Shown: in pieces, positions 915 to 20,656 of the stretch
Position numbering within the stretch: position 1 is the stretch's first letter
How the letters are laid out: every line of letters begins with the position of its first letter
Virus genome (UHGV): UHGV-0154029
DNA length: 36,292 nucleotides
DNA from: a virus
Reading direction: 5' to 3' (one strand)
Translations under genes and position numbers: made by a program
The notes under the pieces: model-generated
Told to the model about the DNA's origin: nothing
Databases searched by the model: none
The model's input: only the letters and a program-made list of their open reading frames with translations

Positions 915-1844
915 TCAGTAGTTATGTACTGAAGGAGGTAATTCTTTATTCTTAAGTCTCATCCATGCGGAAAGATTCGTTGGTCCTTCTGGCTCATTGA
1001 TATCAACATCTCGTGTGTGATTGATTAAAACGTCCCTCGCCATTCCGATAACATACGAGAACTCATGACCGTAGTCGTAGCATCTGCCGGAATAGTTCGA
1101 TTGAATTTGTTTTAATGCCGGATACAGTTCGCGGAATAATGCCTGTGAGCGGTTGGCATAATCCCATAACCATACAAGGCTGTTTGCTTCTTTTGCAGAA
1201 AGCTCGTTGGTTTTCTTCTCTTGTTTGCCAATGAACTCACCTTCAAGCGGAACGCGAGCAGCAAGTGACAGTGCTTCGGTAAACTGCTCCTCACTGATTT
1301 CTTTGTACGAACATCCAAAATGGGATTTCAGTGACGACCACATGGTGATCATCGCCTTAGCCTGTTTTTCTTTTGGCAGAGACTGACCGCGACTCATGAC
1401 GAGTTGTTTAATGGCTTCCTGCTGTTCAGTGGTGATTTTACCCGGCAACGCCTTTTTAGCTTTGCGTGGGTTAACTACATGGCCTTTAGTCCAGTACTCG
1501 TAGAGAACATCGTCACACTCTTCCTGATACTGGATTACCTTGTCGCGGATTTCAGGGCGAACTTTGTTAGGACTGATGGTTTGCAGCCAGCCAGCAAGTT
1601 TGCGAAGTGCCAAACAAATAATCTCACGGCACTGTTCATCACCAGGAAGCTGCATTGTGATTTTCACAATGCAGGTTTTAAACCGTTGCTTTATTTTCGT
1701 AAACTGTGAAGCCCAATCCATACCCATGCCTTCAACGATAGGTTTCATTGGGGTGTACGGTTCACCGTTGTGATTGACGACATAAAGCTCTGCGCCGTGG
1801 AATGGCACGTTGATAGTAGATACTGCTGTTGCTATACTTTTCAT
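915..1844 (-). CDS. ant: Putative antirepressor (Ant-like, immI position)
   Basis: 309-aa ORF directly downstream of the arc-like gene and upstream of the tailspike, the position of ant in P22; RBS GAGGAAAA upstream of ATG. Family assignment from sequence alone is uncertain. Confidence 0.55.
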
Positions 1845-1911
1845 GTCAGTTTTTCCTCAAAATTTACTGGCGATTTAAGCCCGAGCTACTCGCAATAGCT
1901 TGGGCTTTACT
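1845..1911 (+). ncRNA. Predicted sar-like antisense small RNA covering the ant RBS
   Basis: Plus-strand promoter TTGATA(1810-1815)-17 bp-TATACT(1833-1838) sits inside the ant 5' coding region; the transcript would be antisense to the ant start/RBS and run into a 10-bp-stem hairpin (1878-1907, GCCCGAGCTA...TAGCTTGGGC) followed by TTT. This is the arrangement of P22 sar. Confidence 0.35.
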
Positions 1912-2057
1912 CATTCTGGACAAACAATTCCATCCTTAGCTACTGACTCCTTTAGTCTCCTCAATACCTCATTACTGAACGACCGATCATCCTTTTTCGC
2001 GGACTGCTCCAAAGCCTTTTCTAGCCATTCTGGCATCCTTAATGTCTTAACTTTCAT
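1911..2057 (-). CDS. arc: Arc-like ribbon-helix-helix repressor (48 aa)
   Basis: Not in the ORF track (<60 aa). Minus-strand ORF MKVKTLRMPEWLEKALEQSAKKDDRSFSNEVLRRLKESVAKDGIVCPE with RBS AGGAG; RHH pattern resembling P22 Arc (RSxNSE motif region); immediately upstream of ant. Confidence 0.7.
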   Translation of the reverse strand: MKVKTLRMPEWLEKALEQSAKKDDRSFSNEVLRRLKESVAKDGIVCPE

Positions 2058-2161
2058 TTTTGCTCCTTTGTATGTGGTACGCATACATAGTATTTAGGTA
2101 CGCATTGATAGTCAATAGATACCTACATATCCTGTGGTAAATAATTATTCAGGATGCGCCG
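2058..2161. promoter_or_regulatory. Divergent promoter/operator region (Pant-like on minus strand, Pmnt-like on plus strand)
   Basis: Minus strand: TTGACT (plus 2110-2115) - 17 bp - TACTAT (plus 2087-2092) upstream of arc. Plus strand: TTGATA (2106-2111) - 17 bp - TATCCT upstream of mnt-like gene. Direct repeats GGTACGCAT (2075-2083 and 2098-2106) and palindrome ATTGATAGTCAAT are candidate Arc/Mnt operators. Confidence 0.55.
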
Positions 2162-2413
2162 ATGTCTGATCGTAAGTACAAAAACCCTCAAGTGAATCTG
2201 AGGCTTCCTGTAGAGATAAAGGAACGTCTTATTGAGCTGGCTGAGGCTAATTCTCGTTCATTAAATGCTGAGATGGTAGCAGCACTTGAGGCATGGACTG
2301 AAAAAAATAAACATATTCAAGCACTAGATATTGCAACTATAGCATCGCGGTTGATAGAGCTTGAGCATGAGGTTGAGAAGTTAAAATGTATGCATGGCAA
2401 CGGTGAAAAATGA
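2162..2413 (+). CDS. mnt: Mnt-like ribbon-helix-helix repressor (83 aa)
   Basis: N-terminus PQVNLRLPVEIKERLIELAEANSRSLNAEMVAAL has the RHH pattern of Arc/Mnt; the C-terminal half is predicted coiled coil as in Mnt; divergent from arc/ant as in P22 immI. Confidence 0.65.
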   Translation: MSDRKYKNPQVNLRLPVEIKERLIELAEANSRSLNAEMVAALEAWTEKNKHIQALDIATIASRLIELEHEVEKLKCMHGNGEK

Positions 2414-2727
2414 AACGCATCGCTATCCTATTGCTCCTGTGTCTCTCGAGCATAGCTAACGCAGAAACAAAATCAGACGATAGCAGTTTTGATGAAATAC
2501 AAGGCCTCATGATAGCTTCGAAAATGGCTGGTATGTGTGGTGCAATCAAACAAATGGCAATATTCCAAGAATCTACAAACATGCCGGGTGGGAATGAATT
2601 CTTACAGAGATTCCTTACTACAGAGCAAGCAAGGCTTGGGATGACTCCGCAGCAATTTCTTGAAGCATGTCAGAAATCAATCTCTATTTATACCACCTAT
2701 TACAATATGAGCTCTGAGAAAAAATAG
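2410..2727 (+). CDS. Secreted (signal-peptide) protein of unknown function, co-transcribed with mnt-like gene
   Basis: 105 aa; N-terminus MKRIAILLLLCLSSIANA is a classic Sec signal peptide with an AxA cleavage site; its start overlaps the mnt-like stop (ATGA). Confidence 0.6.
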   Translation: MKRIAILLLLCLSSIANAETKSDDSSFDEIQGLMIASKMAGMCGAIKQMAIFQESTNMPGGNEFLQRFLTTEQARLGMTPQQFLEACQKSISIYTTYYNMSSEKK

Positions 2728-2736
2728 ACTATGGTT

Positions 2737-2922
2737 TCAACAACTTCCGCGTCCCTGAGTAATTCTATTGCGGATTTGCTTCTTACGGTGGTTTAAGCTG
2801 GAGAGCTTGGCTTCTGCTTCTGATATTTGCGCATCAAGATCTTTAAGCTCAAGATCTGAAAGTCGCTGGTCAAGCAGGGTTTGGTTCAACTCAATGTTGT
2901 TCAGGCGTTCTTCTATGGTCAT
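2737..2922 (-). CDS. Small coiled-coil protein (61 aa), unknown function
   Basis: ORF with strong RBS AAGGAG 7 nt upstream of ATG; heptad-like sequence IEERLNNIELNQTLLDQRLSDLELKDLDAQISEAEAKL. Confidence 0.45.
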   Translation of the reverse strand: MTIEERLNNIELNQTLLDQRLSDLELKDLDAQISEAEAKLSSLNHRKKQIRNRITQGRGSC

Positions 2923-2934
2923 GATTACTCCTTA

Positions 2935-2958
2935 TAAAAAACCCACCTGACGGTGGGT
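2935..2958 (-). terminator. Intrinsic terminator downstream of lipoprotein gene
   Basis: Minus-strand hairpin CCCACC-GTCA-GGTGGG followed by TTTTTT. Confidence 0.6.
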
Positions 2959-2966
2959 TTCATTTC

Positions 2967-3398
2967 TTAATCTTGCTTTGTGGACGGTATAAGGGATGCG
3001 TTTGCCTCTTTTGGCTTCAAGGTATACATCCCACCATTAAATGGATCAACAGCAAGCCAACCAATTAACCCACCAAACACAAGGTTTCCACCAATATACC
3101 AACCATTAGCATTGGCTTTGATTGGCAGGGTAACTGGTTCGTACCCATCCTTTTCCATAGTGATCTGGTAACTCTTTTTGCCAAAATAACTACCATCTGA
3201 CTTGGCAAGAGTTACTCCTTGTGGGGTCTTACCTTGCGCAACAATCACGCCTGATTCGTCTTTTACCTTAAAGCTCGCACCGGAAGGATTGCTGTTCACT
3301 TGCACAAGCTGTGTTTCGTCACCAACAATAGTTGCGCACCCAGATAACATGATAGCGCCAGCAACGACGCTAATAATCCTCTTCATATCAATTTCCAT
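2967..3398 (-). CDS. Lipoprotein (lipobox LSGC), moron at the P22 sieA position; candidate superinfection-exclusion factor
   Basis: ORF MEIDMKRIISVVAGAIMLSGCATIV...: signal peptide plus lipobox L-S-G-C; the true start may be the second Met (3386). Located between the gp16-like ejection gene and the immI module. Confidence 0.7.
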   Translation of the reverse strand: MEIDMKRIISVVAGAIMLSGCATIVGDETQLVQVNSNPSGASFKVKDESGVIVAQGKTPQGVTLAKSDGSYFGKKSYQITMEKDGYEPVTLPIKANANGWYIGGNLVFGGLIGWLAVDPFNGGMYTLKPKEANASLIPSTKQD

Positions 3399-3481
3399 AT
3401 CTAAAAAACCGGAAACATCCTAATGACAAACCATTCAAATGTGAAGCACGAGATAAGATCAATCCATCCGTGGACGACTAA

Positions 3482-5641
3482 TTACTCCTGTGTCATTCCG
3501 CTTAGCGATGCCACAATCCCAGCCCTCGACAAACGCTGGAACTCTTCGTTTCCTAGTGCATCGCGAATTGCTTTTACGGCGGCCTTATTTGCCATAAATC
3601 TGCGTTCCGCCGCCGCTAATGCTTCTTTGCTTCCGCCTGCTCTTACTGCTTTGGTGGCTTCCTGAACAGCTTTCTCTATCGCATATCGACCACTACGTGT
3701 GGTGGCAATTTTAGATACAGCGCCTTTTAACCCAGCGCCAACTAAAGCACCCGCGGCAGCGCCTGCAATGCCCCCTCCAGCGCCACCAACAATGGCACCT
3801 GATGTTGAGTTGGCAATTGCATTTAACACTGTTGATGTGACGTTGGATAAACCAGCATCCAGATCGCGTAGTACATTGGCAGTTCTCCCTGTTCTTTCAA
3901 TATACTGCTGAGGTTTCACTGCCGCTCTTGCAAGAGTGCCATATGCATCAGCAATTCTTCCAAGTTCTGAGGAATATCTGCTAATGGCTTTTACATTTTG
4001 TGGGGTAAGTATCCCTGCGATATGGTTAATTCCTGCTGCATCAGATTTGCCACCACGTACACCATGCGAGATAGCATCCTGCAACATTGATGATATAGCA
4101 GGAACACGCTCTGATTCTGGCAGCGCGCGGATCATAGAATGGAATCCGGCAGGACCATTAAGACCTTTAGCTGACGATGATTGAAGAGATTTTACTCCAT
4201 TCGTAATCAGTGCATCTGTTGCCAAATCACGCCCAAAAACAGACTCTGCACTCTCTTGTGCGGATAGCCTCGCTTTAGACAGATCATTAGCTTTTTGCCA
4301 GTCATCAAAAAATCCGCCGTTTTCCGCCATTGTGCGCATATCATCAGTAATTGCCCGACGTATTTCCCCTGCTCTCCTTGCCGCATTTGCCTCTCCGCTA
4401 CGCTTATATTTTTGCTCCGCATCAGCAAATTTCGCTCTCCATGCTTTCATGCCATCAAATGTTACTCCACCTTGATTGTTTGCCTGAACAAACTGTTTCA
4501 TTTCAGGAGTAAGCGGTATGCCAGCAGATCGCTCTGCCTGAATAACGGCATTACCATTTAGCATTCTTGCTTTTTGATTTGGCATTGTTGACCGCACGTC
4601 ATCCCATGCCGCGCGCTCAGCATCCTTCATCTGATCAAGATGTTGGAGAATCCTTTGTTTTATAGCCGCACTTTTTTCTGATGCCGTTCCAGATGCGGCC
4701 CCAAATTCATCAAGGTTTCGACTTAACTTTGATGATATTTCGTTAAATGCTGCCTGATGGGCATCCTGAACAATCCCTGGTGTTGATGCCAATGCGCCTT
4801 CGGCTTGTGCAATTCCACGACTTCCAGATCGCATTCCTGGTGTTAATGCGTTTATATCAATTCCAGCAGACTCAGCCGCTTTTGCTACATCTTCGGAGAC
4901 ATTAGCGGCCTGACTGGCAATTGACTGACGCCCGGCACCTGACTTTGCCATCCTGGAAACATCATTAGCAGAATTCAGTGCTGCACCACCAAGAGCCTGT
5001 GAAACCCTTGGCGCAATAACGCGCCCGACACCTGAAAGAACGCCTTGAGCACCAATATTGATACCACCGTTAATGGCAGCATTTTGTGCAAAATCACCCT
5101 CCTGATTTGCAGCATCAGCAAGAGAACCGGCAATCATGTTTCCTGCGGAACCGATATCTCCAGCGAGCTTTGCTGTCGCTCCAGCAGCTTTTGCCGCTGT
5201 GCCAATTGGCAGGAGATACCCACCAATTGTTTCACCGGCTTGCGCGTAAGGATCTGTCGGTCGGTCGACTGGACGATAGACATCATCCAATACTTTTGGC
5301 CCACCAAGCCCCTGACTGATTGCATTAATCAGACTTGCGCCACCCTGCAATACGTCAAATGGTATGTTTACCAGACCACGACCAGCCTGTTCTGCAATTT
5401 GCCCTGCACTTTGACCACCTGTGAGCCAATCGCCAGCTTGTTGCATCAATGATGGTTCTTCTTTCTGCTGCTGAGGCGGAGGGTATGCTGCATAAAACTG
5501 ATCTCTTGCTTCAGCCCATTTGTCACCAGCCTTAGGGGCAACAACCTCATCAAAATATTGCGCTTGAGCCTGTGCTTTCTGTTCTTCAGTTAACGCCTGA
5601 TACTGTGGAGAGGCGATAACATCTTTCCATGCTTTAGCCAT
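3482..5641 (-). CDS. Ejection/injection protein, P22 gp16-like (719 aa, enlarged)
   Basis: Position directly after the gp20 homolog in conserved P22 order; Ala/Gly-rich segments. Longer than P22 gp16 as I recall it (about 609 aa). Confidence 0.7.
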
Positions 5642-6990
5642 TAATCACCCCATAAAGACGAGAAACCGGACTTATTGCTGTCGCTTCCTGATTTTCGCTC
5701 ACTAACATATGTGTCATAACCTGATGAACTATATCCCATTGATTCAGCCTCCCTTGCTGCAACCTTTTGAAATACAGAATATTGAGATCGTATTTCAGAT
5801 AACTGTTTTCTGACGACCTCTTCAGGCTGTGTTATATCGAGTTTCGCGATCAGGTTTTCCAGTTTTTGGCCTTCAGCATTGGAGAGGCTACCCATACCTC
5901 GCATAGTCTGCACGTTCTGGACAAACGCACCCGACTTTAATTCTTCTATCGCATTACGGTTTGCAAGCCCTTCAGCACTTGTGAAGCCATCTATATTTCT
6001 TCCTTCGAAGCGACCAATACCTTCAAGCTCCTTCTTACCAAGCAAAGAATCAATTTTCTCTATCCCTCGCTCACCAGTAATCAACGCATTGTTGTAATTA
6101 TTGTTGCCATCAAGCCATCTCTTAGCCTGAGACATTCTGGCTGACGTTGCAGCTTTACCGGTTAGCGGATCAATTCCCGTCGCTGCTATTTGTGAGTTAA
6201 GAGACAAAACATCCATATCCTGAAGTTGTCCTGCTCTTTCAAGGGCCGCCTGTGACTGCTTAAACACATACTTGTCGTGATTCAGTCTTGCCATTTGAGC
6301 CTTATAGGAAAGATCCTGCCCCCTAATAGCCCTCGCATTCGTCATGTCATTATTGCGAATGGTTTCGTTAATTCTTTGCTGCTCCTGCTGGCGACCAACC
6401 ATCTTATCCTGAACAGCAAACGCCTTTTCTGGTCCAAGCGCACCGAGAGACATAGTAGTCAGCATGTGTGATAGCTGCTCTGGATTCTGGATACCTGTCT
6501 GAATCATCCAGTCAGCATTAGCACCAACGCGATTTAACCTGTCCTTGTTGTCAGTAATGAATTTACTGTAGGCTTCCGGTCCCTGAGAAAGAGCGACGTT
6601 AGCCCTCATGGCTAAATCGCCCATATCGTTGCGTTGCTGCTCATTAAGACCGGAAAACGCCTGTTGTGCCTGTGCAACAAACGCTGGATTTTCCTTGGCA
6701 AACTTAAATAGTCCCGATGGATCACCAGAAGCCCATGCATCAGCATGAACCTTATTGAACGCATTAATCGCTTTCTGTTGCTGTTCCTGCTTATAAATAT
6801 CAGCAACTCCAGCCAGACCACGTAACGCGGTCAGACCAACGTTATTTGCACCTGAGCGAGCCAGTTCATTGTTTTCGCGGATCAGACCAAGCGTTGCGTT
6901 AATGTCGCTTGCCTTTGGCGCATTCTCATTTTGCGCACCAATTCCAGCCAGAAAACCACCAGAATTAATACCCTGTTGCCACGTAGCCAT
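5641..6990 (-). CDS. Ejection protein, P22 gp20-like
   Basis: 449-aa ORF in conserved position between gp7 and gp16 homologs; start overlaps gp16 homolog. Confidence 0.8.
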
Positions 6991-20500: not shown

Positions 20501-20576
20501 TGGTGCTGGTTAACGGACTTGAACCGCTACCCATTCGCTTACAAGGCGACTGCTCTACCATTGGAGCTAAACCAGC
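20501..20576 (-). tRNA. tRNA, anticodon UGU (Thr) by manual folding
   Basis: Minus-strand 76-nt sequence GCTGGTT-TA-GCTC-CAATGGTA-GAGC-A-GTCGC-CTTGTAA-GCGAA-TGGGT-AGCGG-TTCAAGT-CCGTT-AACCAGC-A-CCA: perfect 7-bp acceptor stem, D and T arms, encoded CCA. Confidence 0.65.
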
Positions 20577-20581
20577 ATATT

Positions 20582-20656
20582 TGGCGGGACAGCGTGGACT
20601 CGAACCACGATAAGAAGGTTAACAGCCTTCCGTAATGACCTTTATACGACTGACCC
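20582..20656 (-). tRNA. tRNA-like gene, anticodon GUU (Asn) by manual folding; possibly degenerate
   Basis: Minus-strand 75 nt GGGTCAG...GAAGG-CTGTTAA-CCTTC-...CGTGG-TTCGAGT-CCACG-CTGTCCC-G-CCA: good T arm and anticodon arm, but a U-U mismatch in the acceptor stem and a weak D stem. Confidence 0.45.

Follow-up and report, generated by a model that had tools for sequence, protein, structure and literature searches.

Positions 2162-3398 of UHGV virus genome UHGV-0154029 are part of the hypervariable 'ant moron' around the immunity I region of a P22-like (Lederbergvirus) Escherichia coli prophage. We analysed this segment within the whole stretch of 36,292 nucleotides (nt; the window), in which the right end of the late operon of the P22-like prophage occupies 915-6990 of the minus strand. 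As the initial annotation had proposed, the segment lies between a gp16-like ejection gene and the arc/ant module of a P22-like prophage and contains four open reading frames (ORFs), for an Mnt-like repressor, a secreted protein (SEC), a small coiled-coil protein (cc61) and a lipoprotein. The region is of an already-described type; its variant content is present in databases but unstudied, and a literature search by accession or locus tag found no paper. What is new here is the lipoprotein as a promiscuous moron, SEC as a sizeable unnamed family and cc61 as a probable constrained late gene. The elements of the segment are as follows, with lengths in amino acids (aa).

2162-2413, plus strand: gene for the Mnt-like repressor, 83 aa (ORF list)
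2410-2727, plus strand: gene for the secreted protein SEC, 105 aa (ORF list)
2737-2922, minus strand: gene for the 61-aa predicted coiled-coil protein cc61 (ORF list)
2939-2961, both strands: bidirectional intrinsic-terminator hairpin (terminator scan and folding, z < -4 on both strands)
2967-3398 as listed, 2967-3386 (139 aa, from the second ATG) preferred, minus strand: lipoprotein gene

All four genes are under purifying selection when related loci are compared with the window allele by the ratio of non-synonymous to synonymous substitution rates (dN/dS). Values were 0.04-0.16 for mnt and 0-0.18 for SEC in most comparisons, 0.01-0.07 for the lipoprotein gene and about 0-0.05 for most of 21 DNA alleles of cc61. 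The four ORFs are therefore genuine genes rather than chance ORFs. Their GC content of 0.40-0.45, against 0.49-0.51 in the late genes, and their presence or absence among relatives agree with the earlier view of an accessory segment. Two of the products are predicted to be envelope-targeted, SEC by a signal peptide and the lipoprotein by its lipobox, again as first annotated; hydrophobic stretches in the four proteins are limited to these two signal peptides and the Gly-rich tail of the lipoprotein.

Translation of the lipoprotein gene most likely begins at 3386, as in RefSeq and in all homologues, the ATG at 3398 being less likely. Its lipobox MKRIISVVAGAIMLSGC (LSGC), recognized in the initial annotation, fits the PROSITE-type pattern, and across 42 homologues the Cys (C17) is invariant and the preceding G16 nearly so, followed by a conserved ATIVGD. 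In E. coli a residue other than Asp at position +2 directs a lipoprotein to Lol-dependent outer-membrane sorting. Since this residue is Ala here, sorting to the outer membrane is probable. In the structural model the mature domain is a beta-sandwich with a predicted local distance difference test score (pLDDT) of about 96, and a Gly-rich hydrophobic C-terminal core is modelled at low confidence; the conserved C-terminus reads NGWYIGGN.VFGGLIGWL.VDPFNGGMYTL. The modelled fold appears PEGA/transthyretin-like. The Pfam PEGA match stays below the gathering score, a PDB profile search returned weak CnaB-like matches alone, and a literature search on prophage PEGA lipoproteins found nothing relevant. 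The family has 715 detected members, in Enterobacterales.

Morons, as defined by Juhala and Hendrix and restated in PMC3594210, carry their own promoter and terminator, deviate in GC content, are present or absent among relatives and are expressed from the prophage while it is repressed. Two further features delimit the lipoprotein cassette on its upstream side.

3445-3417, minus strand: lipoprotein promoter-like site TTCACA-17-TAGGAT (consensus scan, 9/12)
3447-3481, plus strand: hkcB-type 3' gene remnant immediately next to the stop codon of gene 16, with the last 10 codons of HK620 hkcB at 3449-3478

On the minus strand the hairpin at 2961-2939 has a 10-bp stem (-16.2 kcal/mol, z = -4.3) and a U6 tail, so that the terminator first ascribed to the lipoprotein gene is indeed there. 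On the plus strand it has a 9-bp stem (-14.2 kcal/mol) with the tail UUUCAUUUCUU. The record of phage Emek annotates a terminator at the same place, and the hairpin alone recurs in other phages. By its sequence this hairpin would end the lipoprotein transcript on the minus strand and, probably, the mnt-SEC transcript on the plus strand. With the promoter-like site at 3445-3417, the terminator at 2961-2939, a GC content of 0.445 against 0.49-0.51, and variable presence and slots, the lipoprotein cassette reads as a moron in the strict sense on the criteria that can be tested.

The cassette is mobile. The lipoprotein is 99% identical to gp15 of epsilon34 and 97-98% identical to GALLYPH_14 of the Gally prophage. 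Homologues with 68-77% identity lie between the tail-assembly-chaperone and tape-measure genes of siphovirus prophages of E. coli (for example ED1a) and Proteus, another lies between tail genes I and J in Pseudescherichia, and one is found in a decayed prophage remnant. The site at 3417-3445 is conserved in epsilon34, and its -10 element and downstream part also in the Pseudescherichia siphovirus-prophage copy; the Proteus copy has a promoter-like site of its own and flanking terminators. This distribution marks the gene, as judged from homologues and their neighbours, as a promiscuous moron common to podovirus and siphovirus prophages. From 3447 on, the DNA is 96.8% identical to HK620 across the boundary of gene 16 and hkcB. 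The hkcB remnant therefore places a recombination junction at the very point where the promoter-like site of the lipoprotein gene starts, and the alignment indicates that the cassette displaced most of hkcB; epsilon34 keeps both genes. When sieA, hkcB and orf59a were sought in the window, the 10-codon hkcB remnant was all that was found.

Expression of the gene from a prophage is documented for the Gally copy. In RNA sequencing (RNA-seq) of LF82 in overnight lysogeny broth (LB) the Gally lipoprotein gene reached 51 normalised counts against a background of 15.6 (PMC9928086), and the adjoining gene 16 homologue was at background (PMC9928086). Its level was log2 10-11 fragments per kilobase per million (fpkm) in the B (bacteria-only) and MB (macrophage) samples of S1/S4 (PMC9928086), and it was 14-fold up in macrophages (q = 1.4e-31; PMC9928086). 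The notion of a self-contained lipoprotein moron is thus borne out by a 97-98% identical copy that is transcribed from a repressed prophage next to a gene 16 at background level.

SEC begins with MKRIAILLLLCLSSIANA followed by ETK, a signal peptide with n-, h- and c-regions and an A-x-A site (ANA, cut before E), as annotated earlier. Its peak hydropathy window covers residues 4-18; there is no lipobox match and no further membrane segment in the protein, and all 59 aligned family members have a hydrophobic signal-type N-terminus. SEC is thus probably a Sec-exported periplasmic protein. The residues C43, F52, Q53, E72, R75 and C87 are invariant in the 59-member alignment, and the two invariant Cys probably form a disulfide bond in the mature protein. 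K38, Q53, T56, R67, E72 and R75 make up a conserved polar patch. The AlphaFold2 (AF2) model is a three-helix bundle with a core pLDDT of 82-92. The PDB profile search was empty, no informative PDB relative was found by fold, and SEC has no Pfam, NCBIfam or PADLOC match. It does match phrog_19844, a PHROG of unknown function, at 1e-69. An exhaustive hidden Markov model search at E <= 1e-3 gave 256 cluster representatives, each of about 100 aa with an N-terminal signal segment. Sequence comparison thus describes an unnamed family, mostly on mobile elements and repeatedly found behind repressors of the Mnt/Arc type.

We mapped the neighbours of SEC in 31 IMG/VR loci that carry a SEC relative. In each of the 21 close viral loci SEC comes directly behind mnt, and the 100% and 72% variants of SEC always stand immediately 3' of an mnt gene. 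The mnt allele that precedes it may be of the window type, of the Kapi1 type (97% or 54%) or of the P22 type (82%), and the ATGA overlap of the two genes is retained with all mnt types except the P22 type. Kapi1_059 is a 43-47% variant of SEC that adjoins gene 16, in the slot held by hkcB in other phages. Downstream of the 72% variant, and in the same orientation, stands another lipoprotein gene, of the Gally13 type, beginning MKKSLLIIPLLLAGC and with LAGC as its lipobox, and a three-gene unit of mnt, secreted protein and lipoprotein is present in loci L021-L030 (about 4335-4823 in each). GALLYPH_13 itself (locus L009, 4556-5071) gave 70 counts against the background of 15.6 in the LF82 RNA-seq in LB and was up in macrophages.

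Beyond this group, in a siphovirus prophage of Yersinia enterocolitica a SEC homologue stands behind a 148-aa Arc-domain protein whose gene diverges from that of a Bro-N/P22_AR_C antirepressor; a module of the immunity I type therefore moves between phage morphotypes. The Yersinia module (locus L063, 3339-5869) is set among tail genes and runs from the antirepressor through a small ORF, the 148-aa Arc-domain protein and the SEC homologue to a 151-aa protein without assigned function. Outside P22-like phages SEC homologues are single genes on mobile or island DNA. The one in Pseudomonas nitroreducens is near integrase, resolvase and CBASS genes, that in Methylophaga adjoins an integrase, another lies in the Sulfurimonas chromosome, and once, on a metagenome contig, a homologue is found downstream of Rhs/Tc-toxin genes. 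The P. nitroreducens island (locus L054, 128-5303) encodes a CD-NTase and Cap15, has the SEC homologue right after a DUF4145-like 218-aa protein, and resembles a defence island. The repressor is the sole recurring neighbour of the family. A two-gene system that includes SEC was considered and rejected, as the upstream genes are unrelated (DUF4145-like, TPR, unknown) and no neighbour recurs outside P22-like phages. No kinship of SEC to hkcB or to P22 orf59a was found.

The repressor gene was correctly annotated as encoding an Mnt-like ribbon-helix-helix protein on the strand opposite to cc61 and the lipoprotein gene. Its product matches Pfam PF03869 (Arc) at E = 3.1e-10 (40.2 bits, cut-off 20.4), equals P22 Mnt in total length and is 47% identical to it over residues 8-39; to the mnt products of CUS-3, SEN22 and E. 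coli prophages it is 87-98% identical. The C-terminal half appears helical, with a heptad-like pattern (IASRLIELEHEVEKLK), and has no detectable similarity to P22 Mnt there. These matches identify it, at the level of sequence, as an Mnt-type repressor. The mnt stop codon overlaps the SEC start within GAAAAATGAAAC (ATGA), as first described. A terminator scan found none from the SEC stop at 2727 to the hairpin at 2939-2961, which on the plus strand ends in a U-rich tail; the mnt transcript would accordingly extend antisense over cc61 and stop at 2939-2961.

The ribosome-binding site (RBS) of cc61, AAGGAG 7 nt before the ATG, is as strong as the initial annotation stated. The protein is 98-100% identical in Emek orf61, Kapi1_061 and S.Kent 1-2-1, with a 100% match to Emek orf61 and to the core of Kapi1_061. 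Among its 21 DNA alleles synonymous changes reach 11, against mostly 0-2 non-synonymous ones. This near-absolute amino-acid conservation stands out in the most variable part of the genome. The protein has no hydrophobic segment, a basic C-terminus and Cys as its final residue (...QGRGSC). It belongs to phrog_7586 (3e-44), again a PHROG of unknown function. Its Pfam profile matches remain below threshold (XhlA, 14.1 bits against 34.7; DUF3847, 16.8 against 40), and in PADLOC it matches coiled-coil parts of large SMC-like proteins. On these weak matches to coiled-coil families cc61 is predicted to be a cytoplasmic coiled-coil protein.

The consensus scan found no promoter-like site belonging to cc61, whose start lies 17 nt past the U-tract of the terminator both in the window and in Emek. 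Across the 31 loci cc61 invariably converges on the gene that closes the mnt unit (SEC or Kapi1_062) and invariably has the same orientation as the late operon; upstream of it lies the lipoprotein gene, hkcC, Emek orf161 or the oppositely oriented Kapi1_060. In P22, late transcription passes through this region and on into the tailspike gene (PMC2629481). Given this read-through and the late-operon orientation, cc61 would be translated from antiterminated late transcripts. The initial annotation had placed it in a moron cluster; we regard it as probably a late gene and not a lysogen gene. In many IMG/VR loci Kapi1_060 (locus L004, 2707-2889), a 60-aa signal-peptide protein with multiple Cys, is often back-to-back with cc61 and appears from its sequence to be another small exported ant-moron protein. 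In one locus (L015, 4062-5057) the match to cc61 is shortened (4062-4196) and about 430 extra bases lie between it and the lipoprotein gene, which may reflect an insertion or rearrangement.

The cassettes combine differently, with different neighbours and gene 16 types, in the 31 viral loci. The lipoprotein gene occurs with or without SEC and cc61, and the mnt-SEC pair is near-identical in S.Kent 1-2-1. We counted prevalence among 5,426 complete E. coli genomes: SEC is present in 36 of them, the lipoprotein gene in 124 and cc61 in 130, and the whole four-gene arrangement in 8.

The mnt gene is divergent from arc-ant on the opposite strand. The immunity I elements between and beyond these genes, and the genes that flank the segment, are listed here.

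2091-2129, no strand: imperfect operator-like palindrome between arc and mnt (18-nt arms, 78% complementary)
2115-2087, minus strand: Pant-like site TTGACT-17-TACTAT (promoter consensus scan)
2105-2133 and 2116-2145, plus strand: Pmnt-like sites (promoter consensus scan)
1845-1911, plus strand: sar-like antisense RNA (Rfam RF00262, full model, 29.3 bits against a gathering score of 43, E = 0.0025)
1810-1838, plus strand: Psar-like promoter TTGATA-17-TATACT with extended -10, 10/12 consensus, inside the start of ant
915-1844, minus strand: antirepressor gene ant (P22_AR_N and P22_AR_C domains)
3482-5641, minus strand: gene 16 homologue, ejection protein (phrog_770, 'DNA transfer protein')
5641-6990, minus strand: gene 20 homologue, ejection protein, flanking the segment

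The palindrome at 2091-2129 overlaps the divergent promoter-like sites of both strands. The arc-mnt spacer differs by 1-2 substitutions in SEN22 and CUS-3 and is identical in one E. coli prophage, all with the same mnt/arc type; in the locus with a P22-type mnt the spacer is replaced by P22 Omnt/Oarc sequences. By analogy with P22 immunity I the palindrome is a candidate operator. The arc gene most likely starts at the ATG at 2057 (48 aa) and not at 2084 (57 aa; listed ORF 1911-2084, minus strand), because the predicted Pant -10 element (2092-2087) would put the transcript start downstream of 2084; an AAGGAG Shine-Dalgarno sequence lies 6 nt before the ATG at 2057, and RefSeq gives arc as 147 nt. 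The sar-like RNA folds strongly (-25.9 kcal/mol, z = -5.5), and with its Psar-like promoter the immunity I module therefore looks complete. The tailspike gene is truncated by the left end of the window. At gathering scores the Rfam scan of the window returned nothing beyond two adjacent tRNA genes within the prophage (20504-20656, minus strand; 61.5 and 55.3 bits), the sar-like RNA being below threshold.

Taken together, we consider it likely that the ant moron of this prophage is built of three independently recombining cassettes whose envelope proteins serve the lysogen. In the proposed working, mnt and SEC would be read from a Pmnt-like promoter that overlaps the Pant-like promoter and the palindromic operator. 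Ribosomes that end mnt would restart at the overlapping ATG and make SEC, so that, through this proposed translational coupling, SEC is sent to the periplasm whenever Mnt is made. The transcript would most likely continue antisense through cc61 to the bidirectional hairpin, and cc61 would probably be made only upon antiterminated late read-through towards the tailspike gene. The lipoprotein, transcribed from the repressed prophage, would probably reside in the outer membrane with its beta-sandwich and Gly-rich hydrophobic tail. A lysogen would then make the lipoprotein and, at a lower, Mnt-linked level, a periplasmic three-helix protein, and both would most likely change its envelope to its advantage.

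Several observations weigh against this model. The promoter-like sites in the region are consensus matches whose number is not above shuffled expectation, and the localisation of both envelope proteins follows from sequence rules. The mRNA of mnt was undetected in Kapi1 lysogens (PMC12922286), and Gally mnt was at background in LB and 40-fold higher in macrophages (PMC9928086); with mnt mRNA this low in Kapi1 and in Gally in LB, SEC may be scarce or condition-dependent. All five rightmost Gally genes, including the tailspike gene, rise together in macrophages (PMC9928086), and the macrophage induction is perhaps not specific to the lipoprotein promoter. Lipoproteins of about 70% identity occur in phages with different receptors and tail types, from Escherichia to Proteus. 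Homology and fold searches gave no function for any of the three unknown proteins: scans of all proteins against Pfam, NCBIfam, PHROGs and PADLOC returned, for these unknowns, function-less PHROGs, a sub-threshold PEGA match and a Cor match confined to the signal peptide. None of the homology and structure searches of the kind envisaged in the initial annotation pointed to a function.

As to what the envelope proteins do, a block of an early post-adsorption step of superinfecting phages by the two of them, analogous to SieA, HK97 gp15 or Cor, comes first among the specific roles, though we hold it to be less likely than not. This is suggested by the genomic position, by the HK97 gene 15 slot, by the lack of sieA here and in two thirds of P22-like phages, and by the precedents of Cor and Llp. 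More specifically, the lipoprotein and/or SEC could replace SieA and block P22-like DNA delivery, for instance at the gp7/gp20/gp16 conduit in the outer membrane or periplasm, a proposal that is possible and on present evidence somewhat doubtful. The genes are in the P22 sieA slot, and a tblastn search of the whole window with P22 SieA, types B and C not being searched, gave nothing below E = 3. Lipoprotein homologues hold the HK97 gene 15 exclusion-moron slot, one of them is expressed from a prophage, and both proteins are predicted to reach the envelope. Neither protein resembles SieA, Cor, Llp, HK97 gp15 or PADLOC models beyond the signal peptide, however, and the lipoprotein is common to podovirus and siphovirus prophages with unrelated entry machineries. 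SEC relatives are also found in Pseudomonas, Methylophaga, Sulfurimonas and Nitrosomonas, where they lie on islands that hold no P22-like phage, and the type of SEC does not co-vary with the type of gene 16. Both families span a wide range of hosts and phages, which speaks for a conserved target in the envelope and against a mechanism tied to one receptor.

A role of the two proteins in envelope fitness or virulence may likewise be entertained with reserve; it is argued for by the macrophage induction and by carriage in phages with unrelated receptors and tails. In the way that has been suggested for Bor and Lom, the lipoprotein, and perhaps SEC, might strengthen or remodel a stressed envelope and so aid the lysogen in the gut or in macrophages rather than against phages, which we hold to be conceivable but not probable. 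The Gally homologue is strongly up in the bacteria-only samples as well as in macrophages relative to LB, and the lipoprotein family is conserved across Enterobacterales prophages whatever the phage type. The Gly-rich tail offers an analogy, and only that, with the glycine-zipper lipoproteins that a preprint connects with the stability of the outer membrane (bioRxiv 10.64898/2025.12.22.696046). On the other side, the Gally induction extends over the entire right end of the prophage with its tailspike gene, and deletion of Gally mnt (of mnt, not of the lipoprotein gene) had no effect on bacterial survival inside macrophages (PMC9928086).

It is unlikely that SEC is a new widespread periplasmic defence family wired to the maintenance repressor, binding the DNA-delivery conduit or neutralising a hydrolase, with the lipoprotein as a second layer in the outer membrane. 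Still less do we expect SEC to be an immunity or inhibitor protein against a periplasm-acting toxin or hydrolase, such as an effector of the type VI secretion system (T6SS), Rhs or colicin type or a virion peptidoglycan hydrolase. A small, helical, predicted periplasmic and probably disulfide-bonded protein with a conserved polar patch, found as a lone gene on the mobile islands of many proteobacteria and once, in a metagenome, downstream of Rhs/Tc-toxin genes, would suit that role. A toxin is nearby in only one of roughly 25 inspected contexts, however, and there is no conserved partner gene. That the small ORFs, cc61 especially, are chance ORFs over regulatory DNA (terminators, or the antisense of the mnt transcript) is very improbable: cc61 does lie between a terminator and a convergent gene, with neither its own promoter nor a recognisable domain, but the excess of synonymous over amino-acid changes among its alleles contradicts such a reading, as do its AAGGAG site and PHROG family and, for SEC and the lipoprotein, hundreds of diverged homologues with conserved motifs.

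By what means P22-like lysogens without SieA are protected is a tractable question, for which the segment offers three well-defined candidates. The mechanism of SieA itself was worked out only in 2024 (Leavitt et al. 2024, PMC10883804). About 2% of complete E. coli genomes have the lipoprotein gene, which also occurs throughout Enterobacterales, and it is expressed and macrophage-induced in a prophage of adherent-invasive E. coli. Should any of the three proteins exclude phages or alter envelope fitness, the finding would extend to many prophages together; otherwise the locus is just one more ant-moron variant. Variable genes at this place will not surprise a specialist, and it is a reasonable one in which to look for new phage-exclusion factors.

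The nearest known system is the corresponding stretch of P22. Villafane et al. 2008 gave the name 'ant moron' to the DNA that separates gene 16 from the tailspike gene, reporting ten gene contents in sixteen P22-like genomes and rapid flux (PMC2629481). The present locus resembles P22 immunity I in this position, in the divergent mnt and arc-ant promoters with a palindrome, in the sar-like RNA, in a passenger ORF behind mnt and in variable genes by gene 16. It differs from the P22 ant moron (sieA, hkcC, orf59a, mnt, arc, sar, ant) in having SEC for orf59a, and the lipoprotein gene and cc61 for sieA and hkcC; its mnt and arc alleles are of the CUS-3/SEN22 type and about 45% identical to those of P22 in the DNA-binding domain. 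The initial annotation had held that a maintenance repressor gene joined to one for a periplasmic protein departs from the P22 arrangement. That view is not borne out, given the published ant moron: in the P22 record orf59a lies on the same strand 3' of mnt, before the annotated mnt terminator, and other passengers follow mnt in Kapi1 (Kapi1_062), Emek (orf77 and orf69) and CUS-3 (a second mnt).

With SieA of P22 (types A-C; Leavitt et al. 2024, PMC10883804), encoded by 22 of 66 P22-like phages (PMC10883804), the proteins described here share their place in the genome and the notion that a prophage expresses an envelope protein to act on incoming P22-like phages. The P22 record places sieA, under a promoter of its own, on the same strand as mnt. 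Its product is polytopic in the inner membrane, whereas the present proteins have no membrane-spanning segment beyond the signal peptide and no sequence similarity to it. Among lipoproteins, Cor (phi80/N15) and Llp (T5) are phage exclusion factors and Bor confers serum resistance. Like these, the lipoprotein studied here is a phage- or prophage-encoded E. coli lipoprotein and would, in its proposed role, alter the cell surface; unlike Cor and Llp, it has an unrelated mature domain, and its carrier phages have no common receptor. The match to Cor is limited to the signal peptide and lipobox (phrog_1119, residues 5-24; NF047972, 13.3 bits against a cut-off of 31, residues 5-33).

In epsilon34 (gene 15) and Gally (GALLYPH_14) the 97-99% identical lipoprotein gene is next to mnt and has the same upstream promoter region and terminator. 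These two phages differ from the window in having no SEC and no cc61, so that mnt abuts the lipoprotein gene directly, and in epsilon34 hkcB is intact. HK97 gene 15, finally, is the original moron and a proven exclusion gene in the slot between chaperone and tape-measure genes (Cumby et al. 2012; PMC3594210). Its product is a small YebO-like inner-membrane protein with a proven exclusion function, unrelated to the beta-sandwich lipoprotein, for which exclusion is a candidate role; it is this same slot that holds lipoprotein homologues in siphovirus prophages of E. coli and Proteus.

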